Below are positions 2,489-49,144 of a DNA stretch of 58,320 nucleotides, piece by piece. The position numbers and the translations under genes were made by a program. Location: positions 1 to 58,320 of the IMG/VR virus record IMGVR_UViG_3300033149_003373, one strand, 5' to 3'. Below the pieces are notes generated by a model. It saw only the letters and a program-made list of their open reading frames with translations, was not told the DNA's origin and searched no databases. Each line of letters opens with the position of its first letter. Position 1 is the first letter of the stretch. The DNA is from a virus. Taxonomy: Duplodnaviria > Caudoviricetes.

Positions 2489-2840
2489 AAGAAATAAAAA
2501 CCCTAAAATAACTACATTTGATTTTCCTAAAGATAAATGGAAAATGGATATTGGTTGTGTTTTAGCTCTTAAAACTAAATTAAATACAAATATTAGAGGA
2601 GGATTAGAATTTCAAGAAGAAATAGATGGAGAAAACTTAAAAATAATATTAAATAAGCATGTAAAAGGAGAAAAAGTGTTTATTGGAACTGATTATTTGA
2701 GTTATTTAGTTAAATTCCTAAAGAAAAATAAGATTGAAAGTATAAGTATGAGTGTAATTAGAGATTATCCAATCATGTTTACAGGAAATAAAGAAGGTAA
2801 AGAATTTAAAATGATTGTATCTCCAAGATATGAGGAATAA
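2481..2840 (+). CDS. PCNA-like sliding-clamp fragment (about one domain)
   Basis: C-terminus DYLSYLVK...SISMSVIRDYPIMF...FKMIVSPRYEE resembles the archaeal PCNA end (EYL..I.K...D.PL.L...F.LAPRIEE); only about 120 aa. Confidence 0.55.
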   Translation: MAKRNKNPKITTFDFPKDKWKMDIGCVLALKTKLNTNIRGGLEFQEEIDGENLKIILNKHVKGEKVFIGTDYLSYLVKFLKKNKIESISMSVIRDYPIMFTGNKEGKEFKMIVSPRYEE

Positions 2841-2851
2841 AAGGTGATTAA

Positions 2852-4880: not shown

Positions 4881-4888
4881 TGATAAAA

Positions 4889-5461
4889 ATGTTAGAAAAA
4901 TTGACAAAAAAACAAGAGAAAATAATGGAACAAACAAGGAATGAATGGCTTAAAATGTTGTTCTCTGGAAAAACAAAATTTAATGAAACAGAAGCTAAAA
5001 AAGGAATTAAATGGCTATATGAATTTTCAAATCTTAAATCTCCAAAAATAGTAATAGTAGATTCACCATTTTCAGCACAGAAAAAAGCTAATGAATTAAA
5101 TAAAACAAAGAAAAAACATTACGAATTCAGCGTATATGGAAATATAGGAGATTATGGATGGGTTAGTTTCTATGACTTTTTCACAAAAATAGGCATACTA
5201 AAAGACAATAATTTTGAGAAATTTAAGAAACTATTAAAATCAGGAATATATGACATGATACAGTTTGATGAAGTATGTATAGTATGCAAACTTCCATCTA
5301 AAATAAGATACATAAAAGAAAATGGAAAATATGTAGTTCATTCATATAAAAAACATGCAATAGAATGGGAAGATGGATTCTTTCTAAATGGACTAAAAGG
5401 GGAATTATCAACAGAAAACTTAAAAGATTTCATAAATCGTAAAGTTGTTGATAATTTATGA
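4889..5461 (+). CDS. DUF6745-like protein lacking the usual internal tetrapeptide-repeat segment
   Basis: Motifs LTKKQE...EW, GIKWLY...PKIVIVDSP, GWVSFYDFF, EVCIVCKLP, HAIEWEDGF match my recollection of this family. Confidence 0.6.
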   Translation: MLEKLTKKQEKIMEQTRNEWLKMLFSGKTKFNETEAKKGIKWLYEFSNLKSPKIVIVDSPFSAQKKANELNKTKKKHYEFSVYGNIGDYGWVSFYDFFTKIGILKDNNFEKFKKLLKSGIYDMIQFDEVCIVCKLPSKIRYIKENGKYVVHSYKKHAIEWEDGFFLNGLKGELSTENLKDFINRKVVDNL

Positions 5462-5659
5462 AGCAAGTTAATGGAAAAATAGATACTAAAGTCTTTGACA
5501 AAATCTTTAAAAAAGTCAATCATCAAGCTATTTTTGAAGTCAATGCTATATGCTATAATAGATTCTAACATCCATTCTAAAGTATGGTTTAAACTAAAGT
5601 CTCAAGTAAATCATAACATTTATAGAAAAGTAAAAGAAATAGTTAGAGGATGGGTATGA
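5458..5659 (+). pseudogene. MKQV-family small protein frameshifted by a 7-bp tandem duplication
   Basis: TGCTATA at 5544-5550 and 5551-5557; removing one copy gives a 64-aa ORF with ATGA overlaps at both ends. Confidence 0.7.
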
Positions 5660-5832
5660 AACAAGTCTTTAGTGAAATAAATATCCAAATTTCTTCTAAA
5701 ATTAGAGCTGAACTATTTACTAAAATAGATTTAATTACAATTTATGATGTCAGATTACAAATCTGGAAGGTAATTAATTATAAAACATATAATAAATTAT
5801 CGAGAGAAGTAAGAAGAAATATAAGAAGGTGA
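5656..5832 (+). CDS. MKQV-family degenerate tetrad-repeat small protein
   Basis: Starts MKQV; hydrophobic residue roughly every 4th position. Confidence 0.65.
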   Translation: MKQVFSEINIQISSKIRAELFTKIDLITIYDVRLQIWKVINYKTYNKLSREVRRNIRR

Positions 5833-6938
5833 TAAATATAACTATACAAATTAATCATAAGCAGTTAGAAAATCTAATTGTAACATATTATCAGAAAAAT
5901 ATGCCACTTTTTGTTCATGGAACATTTGGTATTGGTAAATCACAATCTTTTTTAGAATCATCTAAAAGATTAGCTAAAGAACTTAATTTAGAGTTTTCAG
6001 ACAATATAAAAGATATAAATGACGAATCTAAATTTATTTTGATTGATATAAGATGCTCGGAGATGGACAGTGTTGATATTAGAGGATTGCCACACTTTGA
6101 AGGAGAAGGTAATGGTAAAAAAACTAAATGGTTTACTCCAAATTGGCTTCCAATAAAAGGACAAGGTATTATATTCTTAGATGAGTTTAATTTAGCCCCA
6201 CCATTAGTTCAAAAATCAATGTATGAATTAATATATGATAAAAGATTAATCGGTGGTCAATATATGCTTCCAAAAGGATATTCTATTTTCTGTGCTGGAA
6301 ATTTAGACTCGGATAAATCAGACATCTTTAACATGGCTTATCCATTACTAAACAGGTTAGCTCATGTAGAATTGTCAATACCATCAATAGAAGAATTCAC
6401 ATCATGGTCTATTGAAAATGAATTAGACTCCAGATTAATAGCATTTCTACAAGACAGACCATCATTATTACATAGATTTGAAACTAACTTAAAAGATAAA
6501 GCCATGCCTACTCCAAGAACATACGAGTTTTGTTCAAATCTGATTAAAGGTGTAAAAGATATAGATGAAATAAGGTTAATGGCTTCTTCTGTTATAGGTG
6601 AAGGAACAGCAACAGAACTTCATGGATTTCTAAAATTACAGAGAAATGTAGATATAAAAGAAATAATAGCAAATCCAGAATCAATAAATGATATAACAGA
6701 AATAGATTTGAAATATGCAGTAGTTTCACGCTTGTCAGATGAATTTAGGAAAGAAAAGAAGATATTTGAGCCACTAATGAAAGTATGCAAATATATGCAA
6801 CCAGAATTTTCAGTATTATTACTAAAGTTCATGGTTAAACAATGTGGAAAATCTGATTTTCTAAAAAGAATGAAGAAATCTAAAGCATGGAATGAAATAA
6901 GTGCAAAATATACAAACTTGGTATATCCAGAAGGATAA
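5829..6938 (+). CDS. MoxR-like AAA+ ATPase (AAA_5 type)
   Basis: Walker A GTFGIGKS, DIRGLP, Walker B IIFLDEFN, sensor AGN, arginine finger LLNRL, PTPRTYE. Confidence 0.9.
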   Translation: MINITIQINHKQLENLIVTYYQKNMPLFVHGTFGIGKSQSFLESSKRLAKELNLEFSDNIKDINDESKFILIDIRCSEMDSVDIRGLPHFEGEGNGKKTKWFTPNWLPIKGQGIIFLDEFNLAPPLVQKSMYELIYDKRLIGGQYMLPKGYSIFCAGNLDSDKSDIFNMAYPLLNRLAHVELSIPSIEEFTSWSIENELDSRLIAFLQDRPSLLHRFETNLKDKAMPTPRTYEFCSNLIKGVKDIDEIRLMASSVIGEGTATELHGFLKLQRNVDIKEIIANPESINDITEIDLKYAVVSRLSDEFRKEKKIFEPLMKVCKYMQPEFSVLLLKFMVKQCGKSDFLKRMKKSKAWNEISAKYTNLVYPEG

Positions 6939-6940
6939 AT

Positions 6941-8683
<1,743 letters not shown>

Positions 8684-8687
<4 letters not shown>

Positions 8688-9578
8688 TTTCTATGTATGC
8701 TGTTGGTGAGTGTGTTTGTAATGATGGAAAAACAAAAATACTAATGCTAGAATCAAAAATTGGAAAATGTAAAGGTTGTGATGAAGAAAAAATAGTTTTC
8801 AGAGGAATTGATTATAAAAAAACTAAACGTTTTTGTGTATGGTTTTGTAAAAAATGTAGAAAAGATATGTATAAAAATTTTAAAACCTTCAAGACTAAAA
8901 AAGAAGCAGAGGGTTATATATTTGTTGAAAGTTTATAATTATGTATTCAATTCTAAATTGTTATGGTTATTATCATATAGAAAAACACGATATTGGTATT
9001 TGTGGTTTTTGCTTTAAGAAAAAGAAAGTATGGAAAAGTATGTATTATACAACAGATGGAAAGAAATATTTTAAAAATGGAACTTATGCATGTAAAAAAT
9101 GTATAGATGCTAGAGAATGGGAAAGATTAGGAAAAGTTAAAACAATAAAAGAAGCAAAAGAAGTTATAAAAAGAGCATTATTTGTTGATTCATTATGAAA
9201 CCTATATTTGAGAAAACATTTGATAAATTAGCAGTAACGAAAGAAGATAAAACAGAAGAAAGAAAGGAAATAGAGTTTGGGTTGGGGTTAGTAGATAAAT
9301 TTAAAGATTCAAATTTTCCTACAAAAGCACATCTTAAACCATCTATGATATACTCTAAAAAATGGATATTTAAAAACGATTTTGGGATATCAGTTGTAAG
9401 AGGATTCGGCACTTATGGTTCTGAAAAGAAACTATTTGAAATAGCAGTATTATATAAAGGAGAGTTACATTTTAACAATCCAATAGCTAATGGAGATGTA
9501 AAAGGATATTTAACAGAAAAAGATGTGTTGAAAATAGGAAAAAAGATAGCAAACTTATCAATATTAGATTTTTTATGA
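8684..9578 (+). other. Three small hypothetical genes (two Cys-rich Zn-binding: 8684..8938, 8941..9198; plus 9195..9578)
   Basis: CxxC pairs; C-termini FVESL, FVDSL, ILDFL. Confidence 0.7.
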
Positions 9579-9588
9579 GTTGATATAT

Positions 9589-9804
9589 ATGAAACAAGTA
9601 AATTCTCAAGTCAGTTCTCAAGTCGGGTCTCAAGTCTGGTCTCAAGTCAGGTCTCAAGTCAGGTCTCAAGTCAGGTCTCAAGTAGATTCTAAAATCGTGA
9701 ATAGTATAGATTATAAAGTCTATAATAATATCTGGGTTAATCTATTGCATCAAGTCAAGCATCAAATATTAAGACAATTAAAAATAATACTTGAGATGAA
9801 ATAA
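9589..9804 (+). CDS. Second SQVx-repeat protein (7 units at 9604-9687, then a degenerate tail)
   Basis: MKQVN(SQVx)7SKIV...; same 12-bp unit as 7147-7470. Confidence 0.8.
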
Positions 9805-35231: not shown

Positions 35232-37379
35232 TTAATCTCCTACAGGTTTTGTTATTTCATAATTTGCTGTTATATTCATCATATTTACCCATACTGCTCT
35301 TCCTTTTGGAACTGATGTTTCATTCCAATATGTAAATCCACATCTATGACTGTAATATTTTGATTCATTAGCTGCTGGGAATGTCCAATATTTATCTCCT
35401 GTTTTTTCATTACAAAAGTCCATTAAACGTATAGTATTATTGAAAAATCCTACTTGATTCCATCCACCATTTGTTATATTTGAAAGATTATATGATACTG
35501 TTGTGTCACCAAGACCAACATATCTAATTAAATTTGCTGTACTGTTTACATATACATATATTGCATCCCCTTCTCTTACTTTTGTTGCCTGACCTGTTGC
35601 AGTTCCTTTAATCCATGATGTATAATTTCCTGCTGTGTTATTATATATTGATACATGAGTTATATAATAACTGTAATTTCCAATTCCCCCAAGAGTTGTA
35701 TTATGTTGAGCCATTATTAGATTCCATGAGTTTGCTACAAGAGTTACTTTAGTCCAGTTTGAATAATTTAATGCACTTGAAACACTATTTGCAGAGTCAT
35801 TTACTCTTGTTTCTACTTTAAATGCACCTTCTCCATGAACCATGTCTGATGTAATGTCAAATGAACAAGTCCTATTTGCACTTGCAGTCTCGTTGAATGT
35901 AGCACTGCTTGAATTGTAAACTCTTGTTCCCTGAGTTCCGTATATTGTTATTGAACATCCATCTACAAATGAAAGTGCGTCTGAATATACTATGCTTATA
36001 TTTCCAGTCATGTCTGTACCATTCCAATTAGTATAATTCAAACTTGCAACATTATTATATGTTGGTCCTGTTCCATCAACAAGAAGATTTACTATTGTCA
36101 TATTTCTTCTAATATCAGCACCATTACTGAACTCAATTGTTATGTTATGTCTTGCATTATTTGTTAATGTTATATTGAAAAGGGTTTTAGTATTGTTCAA
36201 GATAGTTGTATTTAGGGTAACTATTCTTGTAGTTCCACTGTCAGAAAAGACTTGAATAGTTATATTTCCATATTGACTACTATTTGCCTGAACAACAATT
36301 TCTGGAGTAGTGTCAGATGTATTTGTTCCATTTAATGGAGATATTAATGTATAAGTAAAACTGCTTATGTTTATAAGAACTGTACTCGAATTTGTACTTT
36401 GTGGTACAAAAACATCATCAACTACTTCTGCTGTTACATACCAAGTTCCATGCCTTAAATCGGTTCCAGATAAATTGAAATGTGTCTCTGTTCCATTTAG
36501 TATAGTTGTATTATGGCTTAAAATTACTTCAGATGTATTTCCTCTTCTTACATATATTGTTAATGTTAGATTTGTATCTTCTGTATCATTAGCAGATATT
36601 CTAATTTCTGGTGTTTGGTCTGTAGTGTTTGTGTTATTTACAGGATAAGTTATAGATACTACTGGTGGGTCTGTATCTATATTTAACCTTCGTGCTGATG
36701 CATTAAATAACAAATCTGCACTATCACCAAATTCAACTATAATATCATATGTTCCATTACCTAGTGCTGTCATGTTAAAACTCGTTTCAGTTCCATTTAG
36801 TATTGATGTATCAATTATGGCTTGAACAGTTCCACCTTTATTTGTATAGAATGTAAGAGAAATATTAGTCAAAAATGTACTATTTGCACTTACTTTGATT
36901 TCAGGAGTGAAATCAGTTGTATTTGTATTATTTACAGGATTTGATATGATATAATCATATATTTGTCCAAGTGTTACTGTATAATTACCAAGTGTTTGAT
37001 TAGCTCCTAAAGAAGATGTATTTATTCCTGTAACAACCCATTCAAATGTGCCATTTCCTAAACCAGTTACATTAAAAGAAGCATAATGTGCTGTTGCATC
37101 TGTACCATTTACAACCATTGGAAAATCTCCAGAATTTCCATCTCCAGAAATATTATAAACTTTAAGAATAGGAATAGAAATCAATGATTCATTTGATGTG
37201 AAATTTACATTAAAATAACCGTCATTTCCATCTGTTGAATAATTGCTTAAATTCGCAGGACTAGGAGAAACTGCTGCTAGAGTAATTCCAGCACCAGCAA
37301 ATGATAAACTTACAAAGAAAGCTAAAACTACTACAGTAATACCGAACATTAAATAAGCGGGGACGATTTTTCCTTTCAT
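35232..37379 (-). CDS. Secreted Ig-like-repeat glycoprotein (S-layer/adhesin-like)
   Basis: Signal peptide; three repeats of P.N.TNT.D.TPEI...ILN.T.T.FN; more than 40 NxS/T sequons by manual count. Confidence 0.75.
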   Translation of the reverse strand: MKGKIVPAYLMFGITVVVLAFFVSLSFAGAGITLAAVSPSPANLSNYSTDGNDGYFNVNFTSNESLISIPILKVYNISGDGNSGDFPMVVNGTDATAHYASFNVTGLGNGTFEWVVTGINTSSLGANQTLGNYTVTLGQIYDYIISNPVNNTNTTDFTPEIKVSANSTFLTNISLTFYTNKGGTVQAIIDTSILNGTETSFNMTALGNGTYDIIVEFGDSADLLFNASARRLNIDTDPPVVSITYPVNNTNTTDQTPEIRISANDTEDTNLTLTIYVRRGNTSEVILSHNTTILNGTETHFNLSGTDLRHGTWYVTAEVVDDVFVPQSTNSSTVLINISSFTYTLISPLNGTNTSDTTPEIVVQANSSQYGNITIQVFSDSGTTRIVTLNTTILNNTKTLFNITLTNNARHNITIEFSNGADIRRNMTIVNLLVDGTGPTYNNVASLNYTNWNGTDMTGNISIVYSDALSFVDGCSITIYGTQGTRVYNSSSATFNETASANRTCSFDITSDMVHGEGAFKVETRVNDSANSVSSALNYSNWTKVTLVANSWNLIMAQHNTTLGGIGNYSYYITHVSIYNNTAGNYTSWIKGTATGQATKVREGDAIYVYVNSTANLIRYVGLGDTTVSYNLSNITNGGWNQVGFFNNTIRLMDFCNEKTGDKYWTFPAANESKYYSHRCGFTYWNETSVPKGRAVWVNMMNITANYEITKPVGD

Positions 37380-37916: not shown

Positions 37917-40088
37917 TTATTCATCTGAAACTACCATTCTAGCGATTGCATCAGCATGTATTGCAGATGATGCATATGCCATAGACAATTTCATTCGGAC
38001 TTGGTCAGTTGATGGGAAGTCAAATACAGTTATCTGAGGTTTCAAGCCAAAGACTTGAGCACTGCAAACTCCTGCTTTTACCATTCCACAAAGATGTCCT
38101 GTGACATCCATTGTTACATTGCTTCCAGCAACATCAATATATGTATTTGTTGTTGCGTCAAATCCAGGAACCTTAGTTGTGCTTACAACTTTTACGTCAA
38201 GGTATTTGCCAATTTCTCCGTTCAGAACTACTTCATTACTTCCGTATTCTGCTGCGTTTGTAAATTGTGTTTCGTTCTGAAGTGCTTCTTCCTGCTCTGG
38301 TGCCATGAAGAAGACGAATGGCTCTCCTGGTGTTGGTTCCCATGCATTCTTTGCTGTTCCAGACAGTGTCCATGTGTTTGAGTTCCAGTAATAACCTCTT
38401 GTTGACATCAAAAGTCTTCTTGCTTTCTTGAACATCTCTGTTGTTAGGATGTCTCCTGAGTCAAGGCTACTGTTTGCATTTGTTGCATCTCCACCAAATA
38501 TTGTTTGTGCACCTCTTACAGTGTTTGTCATTGCTGTAGGTTCGGTGGCTGTTCCAGACGTTGCTGTTCCAAGAACTGCATCTCTTATGTTTGAATCTAT
38601 TGAGTTTTCGTGTTTGTATGCTAATTCTTCTCTCATATACTGGATTTGGTTAAGGGCACTTGTTCTTATTGCATGGTTGGATATTGCAATACCATAGTTC
38701 AGTCTTGTTGGAGTTATTTTCTTGCCGTCTGCTGTATCTGGGTCTGTCCAATCTATCTCGCTTCCAGCAGCAAATTCTGCTGTTGAAGATTCCCAGCTTG
38801 AGTCATCCAGATATGTTGTCCTATAAGGAACTACTATTTCGTTATTTCCAGTAGGAATTGTATACTGAGTGGCTACTTGTGCAAATCTCATCCTTTCTTT
38901 TGCTGCATCAATTGCCTTTCTTAGGAATTGAATTGGCTGTAATGGATAAGTTGCTGCAGAAAACTGAGTACCTCTTACAGTTGATGTTGTAGTTGCTGTA
39001 GCAGATAGTTCAAAGTTTCTTAGTCCGAGTGGGTTTGTCTTAGGTTGCATACTGAGTTCAAGAACAATAGGAGAACTAAGTCCTCCGCCTTGTAGATACT
39101 CTAACATTCCAACATCTACATCTTCATATCCTGTTGCATTTACTTTTGTTGGAGGAGTTGCTTCTGGATTCATGGAAACTTTGTTTCCTTTTTCTCTTGC
39201 AGCAAGTTTTTGTTCTACAATTTTCTCGATATTTTTCTCATTCTGCATTAGATTCCACGCCTTAAGAACTTCTTTGAATGAAGCATCTGGGTGTGCCTTT
39301 AAGAAGGAATTAGCAAAAGAAGAATAATCAGAACTTAACATGCCGTTTTCTTCAAACTTTTTTATCATTTCAGCGTGTTTTATTCTATTTTCTTCTGCAT
39401 CGTAATCTCTTTTAGATTTGCTGCTAACAACTTCAACTTTAGGTTGAAGTGCCTCTTTAGTTTCCTCAGTTTTTGGTTCCTCAGCCTTTGGTTCTTCAGG
39501 TTTTGGTTCTGGCTTTGGTTCCTCTTTTGGTTCTTCAGGTGTGGTTTCTGGTGTTTCGCTAGGCTGTTCGTCTAATTTTTCTGTGTTCATTATATCACCT
39601 ATATTTTGCCTAAGTATGAAAAAAGTGTTTGGAATTAAATCTACTCCTTTTTGTACTTTTGATGAATTTAGAAATGTTGTCTGACATGCTGGTTCAACAA
39701 CAAGAGACCAATTTTCAATACTAAAATTCTTTACACTTCCATTACTTCCTTTTCCAAGTATCTTCGGGCTTATTCCAAATTTTGCTCCAAGAAGAAGTGC
39801 TTTTTGTGCTTCTGAATTTGAAATTAATAAATCACCAATAATTGAATTTTCATCTAAACGAGGATTTTCTACTTTTCCTATGAAGTTTTTAGCTAATGTA
39901 TCCTGATGGTCAAAATAAAGATACCTTGTTTTTTCATTATCCCAGTCAGTTCTTTTGAAAGCTTCTGAAAGTTCATAATCATCATAAAACCAATCATTCC
40001 ATACTCCGCTTGACATTATTGGATGATTCTTTATTTTAAGAACTTGAATTCCATTTATATTTTCCAAACTAAATTTTCTATTATTCAT
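37917..40088 (-). CDS. Prohead protease - scaffold - major capsid protein fusion (HK97 fold)
   Basis: N-term SSGVWN, LYFDH, FGISP, WSLVVEPAC (protease-like); PEEPK-rich linker; C-term FFMAPEQ...LNGEIGKYLDVKVV capsid motif. Confidence 0.85.
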   Translation of the reverse strand: MNNRKFSLENINGIQVLKIKNHPIMSSGVWNDWFYDDYELSEAFKRTDWDNEKTRYLYFDHQDTLAKNFIGKVENPRLDENSIIGDLLISNSEAQKALLLGAKFGISPKILGKGSNGSVKNFSIENWSLVVEPACQTTFLNSSKVQKGVDLIPNTFFILRQNIGDIMNTEKLDEQPSETPETTPEEPKEEPKPEPKPEEPKAEEPKTEETKEALQPKVEVVSSKSKRDYDAEENRIKHAEMIKKFEENGMLSSDYSSFANSFLKAHPDASFKEVLKAWNLMQNEKNIEKIVEQKLAAREKGNKVSMNPEATPPTKVNATGYEDVDVGMLEYLQGGGLSSPIVLELSMQPKTNPLGLRNFELSATATTTSTVRGTQFSAATYPLQPIQFLRKAIDAAKERMRFAQVATQYTIPTGNNEIVVPYRTTYLDDSSWESSTAEFAAGSEIDWTDPDTADGKKITPTRLNYGIAISNHAIRTSALNQIQYMREELAYKHENSIDSNIRDAVLGTATSGTATEPTAMTNTVRGAQTIFGGDATNANSSLDSGDILTTEMFKKARRLLMSTRGYYWNSNTWTLSGTAKNAWEPTPGEPFVFFMAPEQEEALQNETQFTNAAEYGSNEVVLNGEIGKYLDVKVVSTTKVPGFDATTNTYIDVAGSNVTMDVTGHLCGMVKAGVCSAQVFGLKPQITVFDFPSTDQVRMKLSMAYASSAIHADAIARMVVSDE

Positions 40089-40154
40089 ATAAGAATATTA
40101 CCTTAAGTTGTTCTTATATGTAACATTATTCCTTTGTTTATTTAAAAAATATAA

Positions 40155-41081
40155 TTATACAGGATGATTAGAACTCATTTTCTCTAAATAGTTATAAACT
40201 GTTTTCATGCTTAGGTTTAGTTTTTTACTTATATGTTTTATAGAGCACGTTTTTCTTAAATTATATATTTCTTCCATTTGCTCTATATTTAATTTTGGCA
40301 TTGCACCTGGTCTTAAGAATTTTACAAATTTCCATTTATTATTAGAATCTTTATAAAGTCTGAAATATCCTTCTATTGAAAAATTTCTAGATGATTTTAA
40401 AACAAGTATAATTCTATTTTCTCCAAATGAAGATACTGAGTAAATTCCATTTGATAATATTTTATATTCTCCATCTTTGTTTAATCCTTCAAAAAACATC
40501 CATTCTTTTGACTGAGGATGTTTAAACATGATATTATCATTTTCTTCGGATATTGCTATTCCTTCAACCATTCCGTCAAGATTATTATTTTCAAATATTT
40601 CTCTTGCGTTTTCATAACTCATTATTTTTTTAGAAAAGTCTTTTGGTATGAATAATCTCAAATCTTTATGAGTAGTATTATCTTTTTTATGTTCTTGAAT
40701 AACAAAAGGCATCCATAATTTATGCTTATGTATTTCTCTTATTTTGTTAAATAAGTTTTTTGAAACATCTATAGAATCTGTTTCATTTCCTTCTCGTTTT
40801 AAATTGAATATTCTTATTTCAGTAAAAACGACAGAATCAGAAGAATCTAAATTTTTAATTATGCATGAATTTATGTTATTAAGTTCAAATATAGATGAAA
40901 AGGTTTTTTTAAGTTCTTCTTTTTTAAATACCAGACTATATGGTGCTGGAAGTATATTTTCGTCATATTTTAATTTATTAAGAAAAACAACATCATCTTT
41001 CTTTAGAAAGTTTCTTTTTTTGAGTTCAAGATTACAAACAATTCTTTTTTTGAGTTCAAGATTTATTGTATCATTCAGCAT
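40155..41081 (-). CDS. Degenerate ligase C-part + LigD phosphoesterase-like domain + HTH
   Basis: FVIQEHKKDNTTHKDLRL, HPQSKEWMFFEG, ILSNGIY...EGYFRL...WKFVK; C-term IKHISKKLNLSMKTVYNYL. Confidence 0.6.
   Translation of the reverse strand: MLNDTINLELKKRIVCNLELKKRNFLKKDDVVFLNKLKYDENILPAPYSLVFKKEELKKTFSSIFELNNINSCIIKNLDSSDSVVFTEIRIFNLKREGNETDSIDVSKNLFNKIREIHKHKLWMPFVIQEHKKDNTTHKDLRLFIPKDFSKKIMSYENAREIFENNNLDGMVEGIAISEENDNIMFKHPQSKEWMFFEGLNKDGEYKILSNGIYSVSSFGENRIILVLKSSRNFSIEGYFRLYKDSNNKWKFVKFLRPGAMPKLNIEQMEEIYNLRKTCSIKHISKKLNLSMKTVYNYLEKMSSNHPV
41012..41063. repeat. 22-bp direct repeat with 30-bp period (NLELKKR twice)
   Basis: TTCTTTTTTTGAGTTCAAGATT at 41012-41033 and 41042-41063. Confidence 0.9.
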
Positions 41082-41913
41082 TTTTATCACCTATAGATTC
41101 TAATGTAGTTGTATCAGCCTGTTTTATTACAATTTGAGATAATTCATTTAGAAGGGTTTCTAGTTTTTCTATTTTTTCATTTGTCTTTTCAAATATGGTA
41201 TTGAAAGTATTGTTTTTAGAAATATTCATTAATTTAATTTCATCTAATTTCTCTTTAAGGAGAGTTTTCTGCTCAGTTGATATTTTACCAGATAATGAAA
41301 ATATTTCTTTATTTATTTCATTTATATTTTCATTTACCTTTTCTTTCATATCTGTAATTTCATTAGTATATTTCTGCATCTGATTAGGTCTTTCTTCCAT
41401 TAATACTTTCATCATTAAAACATCCTTCTTTATTTTACCTGTCATTGAAGACAAATCATTAATTGTTCCAATATTTTCAATTGATATAGAATCTATTTTA
41501 GTTTTAAGATTTGATATTGCATCTATTATATTTTTCTTTTCATCAGTTGTCCATATATCCTTTATTATTGTTTTTCCACTTACAACAGGTCCTCCTGAAG
41601 CTGCTCTTTTAAAGAAATTCATTCTTACTACCTGAAATGATTCAGAACCAACAGCACTTGTTCCATCAGAATATGATGCAGAAAATTTGGCAATATAATT
41701 TGTTTCATCTGAATTAGCAGCTACAAAATGTTCATAATAATAAAGAGTTCCAGAAACTTGAGTCATATTTTCACTAGATACATCATTAATTACAGAATTA
41801 TTGAAATGATAAATATCTATAGTCGGAGTTCCAGATATAGTTGCTTCTTCCCCATTTTGTGCAAGAAAATGTGCATACAAAACTATTTTTGAATTTCGTT
41901 CAACTATTGTCAT
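41071..41913 (-). CDS. Beta-sandwich plus coiled-coil hypothetical protein
   Basis: GTPTIDIY...MTQVSGTLYYY N-domain; heptad-rich C-half. Confidence 0.6.
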   Translation of the reverse strand: MTIVERNSKIVLYAHFLAQNGEEATISGTPTIDIYHFNNSVINDVSSENMTQVSGTLYYYEHFVAANSDETNYIAKFSASYSDGTSAVGSESFQVVRMNFFKRAASGGPVVSGKTIIKDIWTTDEKKNIIDAISNLKTKIDSISIENIGTINDLSSMTGKIKKDVLMMKVLMEERPNQMQKYTNEITDMKEKVNENINEINKEIFSLSGKISTEQKTLLKEKLDEIKLMNISKNNTFNTIFEKTNEKIEKLETLLNELSQIVIKQADTTTLESIGDKNAE

Positions 41914-42269
41914 ATTAATTCACCATAAGTTGACATCCTGCTTCCAAATCTGCAAACTGAATCATGTAGTTTTCCTTCGCATACCCAATCCCTGCCATCT
42001 TTAATTATCACATTGTCTGGTATGAATGGCTTGTCATCTTTCACATACACTAATTCCTTCCATCCTGTCTTGCAGTAATCCCAGCTTGTCTTTTCCTGAT
42101 TCAGATAACATCTCGTACCTGCTCCATCGCTTAATTCAAAGCAGAATCGTTTTGTTTCTTCTGCTTCACAATAATGCGTCATGTCTGGTTGCATCCCTCC
42201 AAATACTGACACAACCAATGCTATTGATAATGGAATGAATGCATATTTCTGAATCTTTTCTCTATCCAT
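41910..42269 (-). CDS. Membrane-anchored Cys-rich protein
   Basis: N-terminal hydrophobic helix; paralog of 33590..33805. Confidence 0.7.
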   Translation of the reverse strand: MDREKIQKYAFIPLSIALVVSVFGGMQPDMTHYCEAEETKRFCFELSDGAGTRCYLNQEKTSWDYCKTGWKELVYVKDDKPFIPDNVIIKDGRDWVCEGKLHDSVCRFGSRMSTYGELI

Positions 42270-45004
42270 TATACAACACCACCGCTTGAATATAATTTTT
42301 TGTAGATTGGCATTCTGCTTGTTTCTATTGACTTATTAACTGTTTGATTTCCTTCCATGACTTCCGTTGTTTTGTACGTTACGTTATAAGATGTCAATAC
42401 TTTTTTGTCTAAACATTCTTTTGCATTTTCCTTAAATTTCCATTCATAACCTAATCCATTAAAATGAAGATATGAGAGAACTACTTTGCCATTATCTGCT
42501 TCTATACAAATTTGAGTTTCATTCTTGTCTGATGCCAAGAAAGCATGAGGAGAATTTGCCTGTAATGCTCCGTAATAAACTGTACCTGAAACGTTTGCAT
42601 TTCCTACGACTTGTAGTTTTTGATTTGGAGTAGATGTGCCGATACCAACACTTCCTGTTGGTTGTAAAATAATGTCTCCTGTACCTGTTATTATTGACCT
42701 ATCATCAGTAAACTCGTGATACATATTAAGATATTTATCAACAGCAGAAGCTGAACGTGGATAAACGAAAATCCCACCTCCTCCTGAATTGTATGCTTTG
42801 ACATACAAAGAAGGATAGTCACCTGCTTCTGAACTATCGCCAATATAAACATCACTGGCAACATCACCAGCGTCAATAATGAGATTTCCTCCATCCCCTA
42901 AATAATAACCATCTCGTGTCAAAATCTTTCCACCAACATCAAGTGCTACTGATGGGTTATTTGTCAAAATGCCTACAGTACTGGTTGAACCTTTTAATCT
43001 TAATAAATTCAAACCTGAATCATGTCCTTGTTCTACTGTAAATACAGACTTATCTGTAGAAAAATCATATATTTCAAAATCCATTCCTGTTCCTGCATTG
43101 CCAAATGCCCAATCCTGTGTGTTATTGGTTTTGAACAAGAATGTATATGCGTTGTTACTCGTAAGCCGATTAAATTCAATTAAACTTCCAAGTGTAGTAC
43201 TTTCTAATTTAATAGTAACAGTACCAGCTTTTTTGAGATGTAATAATTCAGTTGGAGTTGTTGTTCCGATGCCGACGTTACCTGCTGAAACAATGAGACC
43301 ACCTGCTGTTACATTAAGTCCGTTCTGGAATGTTCCGAATGTTCCTATTAATGCACCAGAAAGAGTTCCACCTGTCAAGTTTAGTTTTTGACCAGATAAT
43401 GCAAGAAATGTGTTGTTGTTTCCTGTTATCAGTGTTGTCACTGTTGTGTTATCCGCTCCTTGTTTTGTTTCTAAAGCTTCTATCTGTTCTTTTTGTGTTA
43501 CGTTGTCTGATATGACTCTTCCTGTGATATTTATGTTGTCAATAAATAAACTTCCCCATAGCCTCATCAGTCCGTTTACAAATACGTTTGTCACATTAAT
43601 GAATCCAGTTACGTTTACATTTCCTAATACTGTAAGCTTTTCCACTCCTGTCTTAGTTCCTATTGATACAGTTACTCCTGATGTGTCATTATAATTTACT
43701 GTGCCTGTTTTAGCCCACAGATTAAGAGCTGTCTGTGTTGTATTTTCAGATAGCCATGCTGCGTTTGTCATAAATATTGAAGTGTCTATACTTGCACCAT
43801 AACCGAATACTCCTGTTCTCAAGTCAATGAAACCATCCTGCCATGCTGAATCGTCTCTTCTTCCACAATAGGCATGGTGAATAACTGCAACATTATCTTC
43901 TTCTGATGGAAGCGTGAAGCTCAATGGATTGGTTTCTATGTTCATGCATCTTGCAAGTGTTGTGTATGTCTCGCTGTCAAGTGGTGCTAACTCATGCATT
44001 CTTGTGTGAACTCCCCATCCAATAGAGTAAATCAGATACCTTCTGTATTTATTGTCAGAACATAGTGTCGTATCAATACCATCTGAACAGTCTGTCAGGT
44101 TTAGTCCTGTCTGGTTTGAGTGAGTCCAATCTCCACCAGATTGGTAAACGAAATGAAGCCCATCAAACTCTGTGTTCCTTGCCTGTGATGTAACTATCGC
44201 ATTTATATATAAGTAATTTCCTGATGTCTGATTTATGCTTGGAAACGTATTCTTTTTTACATCTAATCCATTTGTAATTTTCAGATTATTAAAATTCATA
44301 ACCACTTTTGTTCTTTGTGTATCTTTCAAATTCAATAATGCATTTCCTTTTAAAACTTCTATTTCTCCGTCATGTGTATAAACATCGAATATCCTGACAT
44401 GGTCTGGTGGGTTGATTGGCAAATCATAGTATGCACTGAATGTTGTGTTAAGAAAACTGCATGAGCTGTCCATATAATAGAGTTTATGTTTGTTGTCCTC
44501 AACAGTAACCGTGCCTTCTGTCAGGTTGCAGTATGTCGTGTTTCCGTCTATATTTACTATTCTCACTATCAGGTTTGGGTATCCTACTGAAAGACCTCCA
44601 CCGTTTGTTACGTTTACGCACCCACAGTTAAGTTTGTTTGACGAGCTGTATATGATTCCAGAACCTATACTTCCGTTTATTGGCTGTCCTGACAAGTAAC
44701 CATCAACTGTTAAATTTCCTGATATTCTTCCACCTGTTAGATTGAATTTTGTTCCGTCAACAGCATAAAGTGTTATGTTGTTTGAAGTGATTAAATTATT
44801 CTGGGTGGTATTATCTGACTCCTGTCTTTGAGTTATGTTTATTCCTTCTACCAGAAGTGTGCCTGACATTGACAAATTAGTAATTCCATATACGCTGTAA
44901 ATGTTCCTCAGCCACATATCTCCTTGTGGTGTAAATAACGATGCTGAAGCTGTTCCAGATGCCAATACAAACATCAGAATAAATGCTATTATTATTAATC
45001 TCAT
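42269..45004 (-). CDS. Signal-peptide-bearing fibre/adhesin-like protein
   Basis: MRLIIIAFILMFVLASGTASA signal; repeated (N/S)VGIGT.TP..L.V units; NxT-rich; visibly more GC-rich than flanks. Confidence 0.7.
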   Translation of the reverse strand: MRLIIIAFILMFVLASGTASASLFTPQGDMWLRNIYSVYGITNLSMSGTLLVEGINITQRQESDNTTQNNLITSNNITLYAVDGTKFNLTGGRISGNLTVDGYLSGQPINGSIGSGIIYSSSNKLNCGCVNVTNGGGLSVGYPNLIVRIVNIDGNTTYCNLTEGTVTVEDNKHKLYYMDSSCSFLNTTFSAYYDLPINPPDHVRIFDVYTHDGEIEVLKGNALLNLKDTQRTKVVMNFNNLKITNGLDVKKNTFPSINQTSGNYLYINAIVTSQARNTEFDGLHFVYQSGGDWTHSNQTGLNLTDCSDGIDTTLCSDNKYRRYLIYSIGWGVHTRMHELAPLDSETYTTLARCMNIETNPLSFTLPSEEDNVAVIHHAYCGRRDDSAWQDGFIDLRTGVFGYGASIDTSIFMTNAAWLSENTTQTALNLWAKTGTVNYNDTSGVTVSIGTKTGVEKLTVLGNVNVTGFINVTNVFVNGLMRLWGSLFIDNINITGRVISDNVTQKEQIEALETKQGADNTTVTTLITGNNNTFLALSGQKLNLTGGTLSGALIGTFGTFQNGLNVTAGGLIVSAGNVGIGTTTPTELLHLKKAGTVTIKLESTTLGSLIEFNRLTSNNAYTFLFKTNNTQDWAFGNAGTGMDFEIYDFSTDKSVFTVEQGHDSGLNLLRLKGSTSTVGILTNNPSVALDVGGKILTRDGYYLGDGGNLIIDAGDVASDVYIGDSSEAGDYPSLYVKAYNSGGGGIFVYPRSASAVDKYLNMYHEFTDDRSIITGTGDIILQPTGSVGIGTSTPNQKLQVVGNANVSGTVYYGALQANSPHAFLASDKNETQICIEADNGKVVLSYLHFNGLGYEWKFKENAKECLDKKVLTSYNVTYKTTEVMEGNQTVNKSIETSRMPIYKKLYSSGGVV

Positions 45005-45267
45005 ATGAAATATACCACCTTTATTTTCATGTCATCATATAAAGCATTCAAAAATGTTATTGTTGAACTAGCTGAAAGATGACTTATAGTATAATCTCCT
45101 GAATGTAATAAAAGACCGCTTACAAATACTTGTTCTTTTTTAGATGTTGAAGTATTAGCAAGAGTTAATACTCTATTTTTTGCACCACTAACTCCTGTTG
45201 CATCTGCTCCTGTAAAGTTTTCAGGGTCTTGTATAGTTGTCAAACTTCCTGCTTTTATCATGACCAT
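45001..45267 (-). CDS. Small beta-rich virion-type domain protein
   Basis: QVFVSGLLLHSGDYT...TITFLNAL...IKVVY. Confidence 0.55.
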   Translation of the reverse strand: MVMIKAGSLTTIQDPENFTGADATGVSGAKNRVLTLANTSTSKKEQVFVSGLLLHSGDYTISHLSASSTITFLNALYDDMKIKVVYFI

Positions 45268-45987
45268 TTAATCACCCACATAATTTGCATTATAAACAAC
45301 AAATTTGCTTCTTCCTCCTGGAATTACTTTATTATTTATTTTATTTTTCAAATCTTCAGTATCTGTATTTAAATCTCCAGTTTCAAAATCATAGAAAATT
45401 AATTTTCCGCTTAATATGAATTCTTCTGAATCAGATATTTTCGATGCAGATTCTATTATATGAGGAAACATTTCTGAAATATTATTGTCTTTATGCATAA
45501 GCTTTATGAAATTCTTGGATTTTAATAAAAATGTTTCAATACCTTCATAATTTGGCTGTATAGAATATAACATATTATCACTAAATTCTGACATAACTCT
45601 TTCAAGTCTGCTTAATGTCTTTTTTTGCTCATTTATAATTTCTATTTTATTTTTAAAGTCATCACCTTCAAGAGTTTTCCATCTATTTATAGTCTCGAAT
45701 TTCTTTATCCATTGATAAGGATATTCAAATAAAGAAGTTGTATCCATTTCTGCTATTTCGTCTTCAGTGCATAAATGGAGATTCTTCCTATGATTAAATT
45801 CTTTAAAAGATAATTTTCTAGGAGGAAGAATCCTTAATGTGCCATAACACCATTCATTATCAATTAGATAGAGTTCTTTATTTACTTTATCAGACAAATC
45901 TTCATCTAATACCATAAGTGGCTGGTTTCCAAGAAACATCAATTTTGCATGATTTCCTGGAATTAGCAATGCATTATTTTTTATCAT
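45268..45987 (-). CDS. ASCH-like N-domain + degenerate ATP-dependent DNA ligase adenylation-domain N-part
   Basis: IQPNYEG (motif I KxDG position), ISEMFPHII, FILSGKL (motif III LDGE), FVVYNANY (motif IIIa FD). Confidence 0.55.
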   Translation of the reverse strand: MIKNNALLIPGNHAKLMFLGNQPLMVLDEDLSDKVNKELYLIDNEWCYGTLRILPPRKLSFKEFNHRKNLHLCTEDEIAEMDTTSLFEYPYQWIKKFETINRWKTLEGDDFKNKIEIINEQKKTLSRLERVMSEFSDNMLYSIQPNYEGIETFLLKSKNFIKLMHKDNNISEMFPHIIESASKISDSEEFILSGKLIFYDFETGDLNTDTEDLKNKINNKVIPGGRSKFVVYNANYVGD

Positions 45988-47368
45988 TTCTTTTTCCTTT
46001 GTCTGGTTTTTCATTTCCGCCTGGTTCTTTTTTGTCTTTTTCTGTTTCATCATCATCACCAATTTCTTTATTTTGTAAAGGTTTAATCCATAGACCTTTT
46101 CTTTTTGGTAAATTTTCAGTCTTTCTTATCCATTCATCTAAATCTTCAGATGGGTGAAGAAGACCAAATCTTGCATATTTTGAAATTCTTTCTGATTTTG
46201 AATCTAACTCTTGTAAAGCAATTTCATTGAATACAATTTTAGGAGGAATTAATTTTTTACCACTAGAATTTTTATTTTCAAGTTCTGCTATTCTTTCAAA
46301 TATTTTAGTTTCTATAACTCTTGATACTCCTGACATCATTTCTTTTAATGTAAGCTTTAGGAAATATTCTTGTTTTGAAAGAGTGTCTCTGTTTACTTCT
46401 CCGCCTGCTCCTGTTGCAAATGCTGAAGGAATTCCTAATCCAGTTATTTCCATATCAACCCAATAATCAAGAAATGTTCTCAAATCCTTGCTTATTTTTG
46501 GTTCTAAAAATGTGATTTTATCGTGATATTTATGTGAAAACGAGCTTCGTGCATTCATTTCTTTTAGCTCTTCTACACCTTTTTTTAACTGTTCTTCTGT
46601 TGGTTGATGCGTCTCATCTCCCATTGATACAACTGGAACAGGATTTCCAATTCTATAAGAAGCAAGAGCAAAACCTTCTTCACTTGATTTGTGCCTGATA
46701 TATGTATTATAAATAGGTTCTACAATTCCAAGTGGGAAAAAACCACTTGAATCAGAATACATCTTGAATAGAGCTATTCTTTCTGCTGGAATATATATCT
46801 GTGTTCCTAAAAGATGAACACCTTCTGGAGGTTCTATTTTTTGTTCAAGAGAAAACATATTGATAAGAGTTTGTGTATATCCTATTGGATTCTGGCTTGA
46901 ATCAAGAGCGATATTCATAGTTGAACTTCTTGCATAATCAAAAGTTTTTGCATCTATAGTATCTAAATCAACTATTTTGTTTCCATCTTTATTATGAATA
47001 AGTTCTACTGGCTGGATTCCAAACATAAAAAGAAATTTGAATATATTTTTTCTGACTTCTTCCCATGTTCTTTCTCCACCTTTTCTTCCAATATTTTCTA
47101 AAAAGTCAGTAAAAAACTTTACAGAATATTCATCTCCTTTTAATGTATAATCAACACTCATAAGAAGTTGCACCAGCTTATTTACTGAATTGAAAATTAA
47201 AGGAGATTCCATATAAACTCCTTCAAGATTTTGTCTTGGAACCCTCGAGAGAAATGGAGTTTCTCTTTTAGAAATAGGGTCTGGATTCTCAGTAGAATAT
47301 ATAGGACTTTTTAATTCAAACGTTTTCTTTGGGAAGAAAATATTGCCTAATCTAGACGTTATTGACAT
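45974..47368 (-). CDS. Portal protein
   Basis: 464 aa directly after TerL; FMFGIQPVEL, PLGIVEP, GLGIPSAF, DEWIRKTENLP patterns. Confidence 0.85.
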   Translation of the reverse strand: MSITSRLGNIFFPKKTFELKSPIYSTENPDPISKRETPFLSRVPRQNLEGVYMESPLIFNSVNKLVQLLMSVDYTLKGDEYSVKFFTDFLENIGRKGGERTWEEVRKNIFKFLFMFGIQPVELIHNKDGNKIVDLDTIDAKTFDYARSSTMNIALDSSQNPIGYTQTLINMFSLEQKIEPPEGVHLLGTQIYIPAERIALFKMYSDSSGFFPLGIVEPIYNTYIRHKSSEEGFALASYRIGNPVPVVSMGDETHQPTEEQLKKGVEELKEMNARSSFSHKYHDKITFLEPKISKDLRTFLDYWVDMEITGLGIPSAFATGAGGEVNRDTLSKQEYFLKLTLKEMMSGVSRVIETKIFERIAELENKNSSGKKLIPPKIVFNEIALQELDSKSERISKYARFGLLHPSEDLDEWIRKTENLPKRKGLWIKPLQNKEIGDDDETEKDKKEPGGNEKPDKGKRNDKK

Positions 47369-47399: not shown

Positions 47400-48839
47400 T
47401 CACGTATAGAACACTTTTCCAGTATATCCCTTATTTACGGTTGCTCCATTAAGTGCCATTCCCAAACTGAAAATCATGTCATCATGTGAAGCATTACATA
47501 CAAATGTTTCAAGACCTGTCATTGTTTTCTTAGGAACTATTGATGTTAATTCAACAAATAACTGGTCTGTAAGTATTGTGCAATTGCTGTTAGGTTTTCT
47601 TGGAATTATAATAGTTGGAACTCTTTTTCCATCAAGCATTTTTCCTTCAAATATTCTTCTTAAATTTAATAACAATCCACGCCTTGAAGTATGGTCAAAT
47701 TTCTGTCCAACTACAGGAACCTGATTCTGTCTCAATTCCTGAACAACATCTACTCCATAATTTGTTTCATCAAGCCTCATGGCAACTGGTTTGAAAATAT
47801 TATTCAATTCTAACAGCCGTTTTTTCTGGGCTGATATTGGCATTCCTTTATGACGTTCTATATGCTTTATATAAAACTTATCTCCATTACTTTCAATAAC
47901 TGTAATTACAAAATAGTCTGCATCTTTTCCACTGCTTACTGCAAAATCTACTCCAATATATACATTTTCTCCTTCACTATTGTAGCTGAATTCAAGGTCT
48001 TCATCCCATGCATCTATAACCATTTCAGGAGTAATTAGTGCATCTTCTGAACTATGCGTATTACATAAATATTCTCGGTCAAACGCAAGTGAACCTATAG
48101 ATTCTTTTATTTGTTTTAACTTTTCTATAGGATATAATTCTGGAAATATAGCTTTTCCTTTAAATATATCATCTGGCGGTGCATTTATTATTGCAGGATA
48201 TACTTTTGTAACAAACAATGGATTTGACTTTAATTTCATGGATAAATCTGCTCCATGAACTACTGTAGTAATCCCAACTAATTTCCCTTTTTTAGCAGTT
48301 ACTCTTGTCATAACATATCTTTCAAAAACTGTTCCCTGAGCAAGATTGTCTTTGTATTTAGCCACTTCATCTGAAATTAAATAATCAACATGAAAAGATG
48401 CAATATTTTCATTATATGGTTTTGAGAAAACTTTACATTTATTTGAAAGCACCAGTTCAGTCTTGCTCCATGTTGTATCGCTTTTATTTTTAGGTTCTAG
48501 GAATTGAAGAAATTCATTATCTTCAATTAAATTTCTAATCCTTTCAAGTATTCCTTTTGCTTGTGGCTCTGTTTTTGAAACAACTAAGATTTCTTTTTTT
48601 CTATTATAGAAACAAATCCATAAAGGAAACCATATACCCAAAATTAAAGTTTTCCCGTGTCCTGTAGGAGCTATAATCATAGTTCTTTCATTTTTTCTAG
48701 CCATCTCTATCCATTCTATATGGAACGGTTTTATTATTTCTCCAGACATTCTTTCTATCCAGAATGCTGGGTCTCTGCTTCCTGTTATACTAAATGTTTC
48801 AAAATTCATGTCTCCTAGAATATCTTTTGCAGTTCTCAT
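47400..48839 (-). CDS. terL: Terminase large subunit
   Basis: Walker A APTGHGKT, Walker B LISDEV, FDREYLC, RNase H-like IGVDFA and HDDMIFS. Confidence 0.95.
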   Translation of the reverse strand: MRTAKDILGDMNFETFSITGSRDPAFWIERMSGEIIKPFHIEWIEMARKNERTMIIAPTGHGKTLILGIWFPLWICFYNRKKEILVVSKTEPQAKGILERIRNLIEDNEFLQFLEPKNKSDTTWSKTELVLSNKCKVFSKPYNENIASFHVDYLISDEVAKYKDNLAQGTVFERYVMTRVTAKKGKLVGITTVVHGADLSMKLKSNPLFVTKVYPAIINAPPDDIFKGKAIFPELYPIEKLKQIKESIGSLAFDREYLCNTHSSEDALITPEMVIDAWDEDLEFSYNSEGENVYIGVDFAVSSGKDADYFVITVIESNGDKFYIKHIERHKGMPISAQKKRLLELNNIFKPVAMRLDETNYGVDVVQELRQNQVPVVGQKFDHTSRRGLLLNLRRIFEGKMLDGKRVPTIIIPRKPNSNCTILTDQLFVELTSIVPKKTMTGLETFVCNASHDDMIFSLGMALNGATVNKGYTGKVFYT

Positions 48840-49144
48840 TTAATCACATTAAAATTCCATTTTCTTTTTTTAGGATAATGTATCCAAATCTCAAATCGTA
48901 TATTTCTTTTTTTGCACCAATTTTTTATTCTTTTAAACTGTTCTTTTTCTCTTTTAGATGGATAATATTTTTTAGCTTTGCATTCTTTAATTTCTACAAC
49001 TTTCATTACTTCAGGAGAATTATCAGAAAATATAATAAAATCTGCTCCAAAAGAACCTATTGCTACTTTTGAGACGGATTCAGGGTCTCGATTAAGTGAA
49101 AGCATTTTTTTTGCCAAATATTCACTTCTATATCCTTTTCGCAT
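48836..49144 (-). CDS. hjc: Archaeal Hjc-type Holliday junction resolvase
   Basis: KGYRSEY, GADFII, VVEIKE motifs. Confidence 0.75.
   Translation of the reverse strand: MRKGYRSEYLAKKMLSLNRDPESVSKVAIGSFGADFIIFSDNSPEVMKVVEIKECKAKKYYPSKREKEQFKRIKNWCKKRNIRFEIWIHYPKKRKWNFNVIK

Follow-up and report, generated by a model that had tools for sequence, protein, structure and literature searches.

Two reading frames between the portal and capsid genes of an uncultured tailed virus as probable remnants of one ligase-phosphoesterase gene

What are the two open reading frames (ORFs) that lie, four genes apart, between the portal and capsid genes of the virus record IMGVR_UViG_3300033149_003373, and did they once form a single gene? 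This stretch of DNA (Caudoviricetes), analysed at its full length and referred to below as the window, comprises 58,320 bp; it is an entire IMG/VR virus record and is flagged with direct terminal repeats. Its late operon is tightly packed on the minus strand and consists of TerL, portal, ORF239, four ORFs, ORF308 and a capsid fusion ORF (Table 1). A first-pass annotation, made from the sequence alone, had proposed that ORF239 and ORF308 are the halves of a catalytically eroded DNA ligase joined to a LigD-type 3'-phosphoesterase (PE), split by a 4.2-kb insertion. The ORFs, their layout between portal and capsid and the strings that it quoted were all found as described: ORF239 contains QPNYEG, EFILSGKLI and FVVYNANYVGD, the last directly before the stop, and ORF308 begins with MLNDTINLELKKR and continues with NSCIIKNLDS, WMPFVIQEH..HKDLRL, KHPQSKEWMFFEG and a C-terminal helix-turn-helix (HTH). 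On the basis of comparisons with related viruses, we consider that the two ORFs are probably what is left of a single ancestral polyvalent gene of the head module; in them, the ligase would be dead and the PE-HTH module kept.

Counterparts of both reading frames in related viruses

Related loci were collected by alignment-based scans, which gave four loci from IMG/VR (L002-L005) and 25 from metagenomes. An exhaustive phmmer search with ORF311, a form of ORF308 with an earlier start, gave 12 non-self matches, including P0009 (6164 amino acids (aa)) and P0013 (728 aa). Word-indexed homologue searches returned the query alone or the query and P0014, scans of IMG/VR with single proteins (the portal, TerL, P0003 and P0004) revealed no relatives, and tblastn against INPHARED phages gave nothing useful. 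Wherever the contigs sufficed, the gene order was TerL, portal, a giant ORF of 1099-1661 aa and capsid genes, with two adjacent ORFs instead of the one giant in, for example, L008, L011 and L013; a type of 1,612 residues was present in L003, L009 and L010. Such a giant protein, or two neighbouring ORFs, occupied the portal-to-capsid interval in all 15 distinct related contigs, and portal homologues were located directly upstream of the giant gene. The domains of the giants are a metallo-beta-lactamase, in many cases a Dam methylase, an ASCH-like domain, an intact nucleotidyltransferase (NTase) of an ATP-dependent ligase, an OB region, a PE and often an HTH. When the four IMG/VR giants were scanned with Pfam, Lactamase_B_2 and DNA_ligase_A_M were identified in all of them, MethyltransfD12 in L003-L005 and ASCH in one.

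Both window ORFs were matched by the one giant, and the matches are collinear. In L002, the closest relative (53% identity in TerL and 56% in the major capsid protein), ORF239 residues 6-119 aligned with residues 264-379 (ASCH-like, E 4e-23) and residues 127-200 with 609-682 (NTase motifs I-III, E 1e-9), the latter being part of the PF01068-positive region. ORF308 then followed with residues 28-83 on 730-785 (motif IV region, E 3.6e-5), 94-233 on 923-1083 (PE-like, E 2e-19) and 241-301 on 1118-1181 (HTH, E 2e-5). A reverse search with the L002 giant against the six frames of the window returned the same five collinear places and no others. Three parts of the giant have no counterpart in the window: residues 1-263 (metallo-beta-lactamase), 380-608 (a linker of about 230 aa) and 786-922 (the OB region). 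The first-pass annotation had suggested a search for unsplit homologues between portal and protease, and such homologues were found, the giants of L002-L005 between portal and capsid being examples; its proposal that one ancestral head-module gene was split agrees with the collinearity of both ORFs with single proteins in this interval, on which the two halves are contiguous.

Other single proteins show the same order of domains. In P0010 (652 aa), an intact PF01068 domain (E 3e-30) precedes a PE-like domain and an HTH, and P0007 (1467 aa) consists of metallo-beta-lactamase, Dam methylase, PF01068, PE-like and HTH domains. Three further proteins lack the ligase: P0004 (368 aa), P0005 (416 aa) and P0011 (537 aa) matched the N-terminal domain of ORF239 at E 2e-37, 8e-18 and 4e-22, respectively (44% identity by BLASTP for P0004), and ORF311 at E 5e-32, 4e-22 and 2e-9. 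No PF01068 match was obtained for an NTase in any of the three, and an HMM (hidden Markov model) of the family NTase, described below, gave only E 0.33 for P0005 and E 0.18 for P0011 and did not list P0004 at E <= 10. Because these proteins join the ASCH-like N-domain directly to PE-HTH without a ligase, loss of the ligase recurs. The best match of ORF311, P0003 (E 8e-42), begins inside the NTase region as ORF308 does.

Support for the name of the N-terminal domain comes from relatives: the window copy has no Pfam ASCH (PF04266) match, two of 14 aligned family members do (best E 9e-6), and the L005 giant reaches this model at E 2.9e-4, with 21.9 bits against a cut-off of 21.2. A profile search of the PDB with the ASCH-domain alignment (A7) gave no significant match.

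Other arrangements of these domains were also observed. P0008 (420 aa) starts inside the NTase just before an intact motif IV (SEGAVIK) and continues with OB, PE-like and HTH parts; either its gene call is truncated or a natural split has occurred at a similar place here too. In four loci the portal carries a C-terminal ASCH-like fusion (L027 1-1623, L028 2497-4170, L029 2905-4578 and L030 2934-4607), and is followed by a PF01068 ligase ORF of 632-637 aa without PE and then by a homologue of the 119-aa Cys-rich protein of the window.

The ligase halves and the position of the break

In ligases of the PF01068 family, the lysine of motif I (KxDG) is the residue that becomes adenylated, and the form KxNG is found in the viral relatives. 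We built a family HMM from 15 related viral NTase domains, and it aligned ORF239 residues 122-202 to positions 11-91 (E 4.7e-10) and ORF308 residues 32-80 to positions 141-189 (E 3e-4). In addition, ORF239 residues 124-214 matched the structure of the S. solfataricus DNA ligase (2hiv) over motifs I to III at E 6e-4, and in an ESM Atlas feature search the neighbours of ORF239 were short viral PF01068 proteins (score 0.90). Judged by the matches to 2hiv, L002 and the family HMM, the ligase likeness of the two ORFs, which the first-pass annotation had read by eye, is beyond chance. PF01068 itself was matched by neither ORF at E <= 1 nor by any of the six window frames at E <= 10, and PF12706 (metallo-beta-lactamase) and PF02086 (Dam methylase) had no match anywhere in the window.

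The catalytic motifs were compared across 15 distinct relatives, with L025, L026 and L027 left out. The lysine of motif I is kept in 15 of 15, and the window has Asn (QPNYEG); the D..E of motif III, kept in 14 of 15, is S..K in the window; and the SEGxxxK of motif IV, again kept in all 15, is reduced to NSCIIK, which retains the lysine alone. Motif V is kept in 15 of 15 relatives, and most other near-invariant NTase columns also differ in the window. With the motif I Lys, the motif III Asp and Glu and the motif IV Glu and Gly lost and no stop codon in the frames, the ligase part of the split gene is, as far as its residues tell, catalytically dead yet open, as had been proposed.

The pattern of divergence agrees with this. 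Between the intact giants of L002 and L005, the NTase is the best kept part (59.5% and 55.8% identity for its two parts, compared with 37.7% for ASCH and 43.5% for PE), whereas in the window it is the worst kept (34% over 73 aa and 28% over 53 aa, compared with 42% for ASCH and 37% for PE). By this comparison, constraint on the ligase remnants is relaxed. On the other hand, the remnants contain zero stops in 117 and 92 codons, while the other two frames of the same stretches contain 8-17; in DNA of about 25% GC (guanine plus cytosine), the chance of such open frames from base composition is 4e-6 and 1e-4, respectively.

The window does not have the NTase domain in one piece: its two parts lie on separate ORFs, 4.2 kb from each other, and the OB domain is missing. 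The 49 HMM positions between the two matches are covered by 58-68 unaligned residues. According to these alignments, the break falls between motif III and motif IV, and most likely just after motif IIIa. The first-pass annotation had recognized motif IIIa at the end of ORF239 and the following DL..LPL.ER-like string at the start of ORF308; the global alignment indeed sets FVVYNANY on the family motif IIIa, but independent statistical support for these assignments was not obtained.

The phosphoesterase domain and its variant active site

An AlphaFold model of ORF308, calculated with a 25-row alignment (A4), had pLDDT > 90 over residues 100-305 and pLDDT < 50 over the first 95 residues. When the model was compared with the PDB by Foldseek, the top seven matches were all LigD PE structures (3p4h, 3n9b, 3p43, 3n9d, 2lj6 and 5dmp; E 3.5e-6 to 2.1e-4). 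VIA-align superposed 108 of 124 residues on 3p43 with a root-mean-square deviation of 2.1 Å (Z 12.4), with Z 12.3 for 3p4h; the PE structures gave in order Z 12.4, 12.3, 11.0, 10.7, 10.0 and 9.3, whereas the best unrelated fold, at Z 5.6, was a match to the C-terminal HTH. The ESM Atlas model of ORF311 was also structurally nearest to LigD_N clusters. On this confidently predicted model, ORF308 carries the eight-stranded beta-barrel PE fold, so that the PE likeness claimed earlier is borne out at the level of the fold. The Pfam model LigD_N (PF13298) found no match in the window ORF, in any of 10 homologues, in the four IMG/VR giants or in the L021 giant. For the HTH, Pfam matches of the window copy were sub-threshold, and HTH_7 exceeded its cut-off in P0004 and the L002 giant.

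The residues of the Mn/phosphate set, H131, H138, D140 and R142, are present in the window and are kept in 24, 23, 24 and 24 of 25 family sequences, respectively; 12 further near-invariant columns of the family are also kept. Their spacing is H-x6-H-x-D-x-R, compared with H-x5-H-x-D-x-R in CkoPE (PMC3082917). CkoPE is described there as binding Mn via His9, His15 and Asp17 and phosphate via Arg19 and His51, with a contact of Tyr55 through a water. By spacing from a conserved W....EG block, the positions of this canonical His and Tyr correspond to Q190 and W194 in ORF308. The family column at Q190 contains Q 17, E 4, I 2, N 1 and H 1 among the 25 sequences, and W194 is W in 24 of 25. The earlier claim that the His/His/Asp/Arg set of the PE is retained stands, but the His of KHPQ, which had been listed with the PE signatures, is not the canonical phosphate-binding His, whose position is that of Gln190. 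From the alignment, the Gln/Trp form is a variant of the whole family, and the window copy is as intact as the copies joined to a live ligase. ORF308 is a compact candidate, of 308 aa, for finding out what a Gln/Trp variant PE does.

Two perfect 22-nt direct repeats, which encode NLELKKR twice near the start of ORF308, lie beside the insertion junction. There are two matches to this repeat in the window compared with 0.02 expected, none of 100 shuffles reached two, and the repeat occurs nowhere else in the window.

Table 1. Features of the portal-to-capsid region of the window
Feature	Position	Strand	Evidence or remark
TerL	47400-48839	(-)	Upstream of portal
Portal protein gene, Mu-type; upstream module boundary	45974..47368	(-)	Pfam Portal_Mu, E 2.3e-10
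ORF239, 239 aa from ATG	45268..45987	(-)	248 aa according to gene callers
ASCH-like N-domain, ORF239 residues 1-122	45622..45987	(-)	phmmer against L002 giant 264-379, E 4.3e-23
N-half of ligase NTase, predicted dead, ORF239 residues 123-239 and stop	45268..45621	(-)	Motifs I and III, probably IIIa
Inserted gene 1, 88 aa	45001..45267	(-)	Homologue in L003/L004, E 3e-15, 42% identity
Inserted gene 2, 911 aa, fibre-like, N-x-S/T-rich, signal-peptide or transmembrane N-terminus	42269..45004	(-)	PHROG tail fibre, E 7.7e-4
Inserted gene 3, 119 aa, Cys-rich, N-terminal transmembrane segment	41910..42269	(-)	Homologues in L027-L030
Inserted gene 4, 280 aa, coiled-coil-like C-half	41071..41913	(-)	ORF only
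ORF308, 308 aa from ATG (ORF311: 311 aa from upstream GTG)	40155..41081	(-)	
C-half of ligase NTase, predicted dead, ORF308 residues 1-92	40806..41081	(-)	Region of motif IV and possibly of motif V
Two perfect 22-nt direct repeats	41012-41033, 41042-41063	(-)	30 nt from start to start, 8 unrelated bases between
LigD-type 3'-phosphoesterase fold (predicted), variant active site, ORF308 residues 123-257	40311..40715	(-)	AlphaFold model
C-terminal HTH, ORF308 residues 265-308 and stop	40155..40289	(-)	VIA-align Z 5.0-5.6, LuxR/GerE-type and other HTH
Fusion ORF, 723 aa, C-part major capsid protein; downstream module boundary	37917..40088	(-)	PHROG major head protein, E 8.7e-12

Origin of the split, rival explanations and known systems

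The block between the two ORFs consists of four ORFs on the same strand (88, 911, 119 and 280 aa), each of which abuts or overlaps its neighbours. In L003 and L004, the homologue of the 88-aa protein is found downstream of the capsid gene, and a large fibre-like ORF (790 to >1061 aa) comes directly next; the N-terminus of the 911-aa protein is weakly collinear with this ORF (E 0.005 in L004 and 0.026 in L003). Homologues of the 119-aa protein stand directly after the ligase ORF in L027-L030 (BLASTP E 5e-8 and 1e-5; also found by jackhmmer), and the 911-aa protein shares repeat motifs with the fibre-like ORF that follows this homologue in L027 (E 2.3e-5). For the 280-aa gene there was no family match and no homologue in the related loci. 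Because such counterparts stand elsewhere in relatives, the block belongs to the gene stock of the virus group; by homology, it is made of the group's own structural-type genes and is not foreign DNA. Base composition was examined as well, since the largest inserted gene had been described as visibly GC-richer. This is true relative to the flanking ORFs (0.36-0.37 over positions 42001-45000, compared with 0.235 over 40001-41000 and 0.279 over 45001-46000), but its GC content is typical of the structural genes of the window, the others of which have 0.30-0.41; thus it is the two AT-rich remnants, and not the 911-aa gene, that are unusual. At the junctions, a TAA is directly followed by an ATG (45268/45267) on one side and there is an 11-nt overlap (41071-41081) on the other. 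A search for target-site or inverted repeats flanking the block revealed nothing convincing.

A second, different insertion was observed in L016 (positions 1444-9675; L015 is the same virus), where about 8 kb of cargo separates an ASCH ORF from a ligase-PE ORF. This cargo encodes two glycosyltransferases, a B12-binding radical-SAM enzyme, a DUF1349-like protein and an 884-aa CarboxypepD_reg protein, and it sits at a domain boundary, whereas the block of the window lies inside a domain. The portal-capsid interval seems to be a hotspot prone to insertion.

Taken as two pieces of one ancestral gene, ORF239 and ORF308 would have arisen in several steps. The N-terminal hydrolase/methylase part, the linker and the OB part would have been deleted in the window lineage, the NTase would have lost its catalytic residues, and the 4.2-kb block of the virus group's own genes would have entered the NTase after motif III and before motif IV. 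A stop and a start would have arisen at the edges of the block, so that the string remained a single, tightly packed late operon. What selection still keeps may be the ASCH-like domain and the PE-HTH module, and ORF308 would be a putative Mn-dependent protein that processes or binds 3' ends and is held on the DNA by its HTH; sealing might be left to the host ligase or no longer be needed, and the ligase remnants might persist as non-catalytic, passive tails. More speculatively, the proteins could be loaded into the capsid and act on viral DNA at entry, in line with the packaged or ejected end-protection function that the first-pass annotation had suggested, an idea prompted by the slot after the portal, the portal-ASCH fusions of L027-L030 and the likeness to polyvalent proteins.

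Several observations weigh against this reading. The closest relatives are 37-44% identical in protein. In Pfam and PHROG scans, ORF239 and ORF308 reached no ligase, LigD_N or ASCH model. The AlphaFold model of ORF239, made from a single sequence, was unusable (pLDDT 39.5) and gives this ORF no structural support. The 44 and 45 residues that flank the break do not align significantly alone (z <= 1.6), so that the breakpoint is bracketed and not fixed. A search of the PDB with the A4 family sequence profile matched ligases and HTH proteins and no PE chain, and the PE assignment therefore rests on the predicted model from the 25-row alignment. Within the PE active site, Q190 and W194 replace the phosphate-binding His and Tyr, and since the H78A mutation of MbaPE lowers activity to 2-6% (PMC3082917), catalysis is not assured. 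Finally, the low GC and the fast divergence of the remnants are also compatible with plain decay.

Decay is the core of the alternative that survives best, namely that both ORFs are functionless pseudogene remnants of a giant gene, still open since their decay is incomplete. In its favour, the catalytic ligase residues and much of the ancestral gene are lost, the GC content of the two ORFs (0.24-0.27) is the lowest in the late region, and the NTase pieces have diverged faster than the other domains. However, both frames are wholly open in AT-rich DNA in which alternative frames carry 24-46 stops, and the start/stop overlaps with the neighbouring genes are preserved. Moreover, the ASCH-like and PE domains resemble those of L002 as much as those of more distant intact relatives do, the four PE ligands and the 12 other near-invariant columns are kept, and compact ligase-less ASCH-PE-HTH proteins exist elsewhere. 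On balance, we regard the pseudogene explanation as rather unlikely.

Another alternative is that the dead ligase halves dock to each other, forming through the split pseudo-ligase domain a two-subunit complex of ASCH and PE-HTH. It would account for the preservation of both non-catalytic halves as open frames, which cover the NTase to motif IV or V without a large gap (HMM positions 11-91 and 141-189). Against it, ORF239 as a whole and the first 95 residues of ORF308 were modelled at low confidence, and in P0004 ASCH is joined directly to PE with no ligase region. Complex prediction for the two ligase halves (median score 0.30, mark 0.32) spoke neither for nor against it. Docking of this kind appears very unlikely, and we give just as little weight to its extended form, in which a capsid-borne polyvalent protein would have become a non-covalent complex held together by pseudo-ligase dimerisation, in which a nucleic-acid-binding ASCH subunit would be tethered to a PE-HTH subunit that processes or caps the 3' ends of viral DNA at entry. 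An assembly chimera, in which the block was wrongly joined into an intact gene of this metagenome assembly, deserves hardly any credence, as it would leave intact halves, whereas here catalytic residues are lost and the OB part and linker are missing, both junctions are seamless coding overlaps and the record has direct terminal repeats.

If the two ORFs are pieces of one gene, the window offers a clear case in which structural genes of the virus itself interrupt a gene inside a catalytic domain and both remnants stay coding. It also represents a natural deletion experiment, in which the ligase was lost and the ASCH-like and PE-HTH parts were kept, independently of the three other proteins. 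Such recurrent loss points to ASCH-like and PE-HTH as the parts that cannot be spared and suggests that the virus can do without sealing or leaves it to the host.

Some features of the rest of the record should be mentioned. Its CheckV completeness figure is only 44, although the direct terminal repeats suggest a complete genome; it is probably a virus without close references. The 723-aa capsid fusion ORF matched the 789-aa fusion of L002 at E 1e-248 (phmmer), and its content is divided into two ORFs in L003-L005. A 102-aa ORF (48836-49144) immediately precedes TerL, in a place that would suit a small terminase; it shows by eye a PD-(D/E)xK-like GxDFI...E.K pattern and has no Pfam match at E <= 0.001. 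Two proteins, of 715 aa (35232-37379) and 911 aa (42269-45004), are extremely rich in N-x-S/T and have hydrophobic N-terminal segments, with a weak tail-fibre PHROG match as their sole family match; they may be glycosylated virion surface proteins. The plus-strand arm encodes, at 7503-8687, a DUF2201_N metallopeptidase and VWA-like (DUF2201) protein (Pfam E 1.7e-37 and 7.2e-22). No host marker was found in Pfam scans of 20 further window ORFs, and the single match among genome contigs, a 9.8-kb contig of a metagenome-assembled genome labelled Chlamydiae, was not taken to indicate the host.

How does this locus compare with known systems? With ATP-dependent ligases (PF01068, for example 2hiv), the window shares recognisable homology over motifs I-III and motif IV; it differs in having other residues at the adenylated Lys and further catalytic positions, in dividing the domain between two genes and in lacking the OB domain. 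With the PE of LigD and stand-alone archaeal PE (3n9b, 3p43, 3p4h and 5dmp; PMC3082917), ORF308 shares the predicted barrel (Z 10-12.4) and the H..H.D.R set, and LigD unites PE and an ATP-dependent ligase in one polypeptide, as the ancestor of the window gene would have done. The viral PE has one extra residue between the two His, Gln for His and Trp for Tyr, and part of the family has an insert of 25-30 aa after the Arg. Unlike LigD, the viral family has no POL domain and no Ku, and its PE is set in a head module and followed by a C-terminal HTH.

The description of polyvalent proteins, in which many enzymatic and nucleic-acid-binding domains are combined in one polypeptide beside portal or terminase (Iyer et al. 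2017, PMC5512222), fits the relatives. In the window, the same slot has two or three domains per ORF in fragmented form, and a MuF domain was not found. Fusions of domains to the portal have been taken as a sign of packaging and injection (PMC5512222). LigD is not named in the main text of this paper, where 'ligase' occurs three times, always for RNA ligases. No description of a head-module ligase-PE protein was found in the literature searched, and the supplements of PMC5512222 may list such architectures.

The nearest known system is the family of intact giants (L002-L022). They share with the window the portal-capsid slot and homologous ASCH-like, NTase, PE-like and HTH parts in the same order, but have 1099-1661 aa or two ORFs, with a complete, uninterrupted ligase, OB, metallo-beta-lactamase and often Dam domains, whereas the window retains 547 aa with a ligase that is, by its residues, dead. 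This intact family unites a DNA ligase with a LigD-type end-cleaning domain in the head-gene cluster of uncultured tailed viruses.

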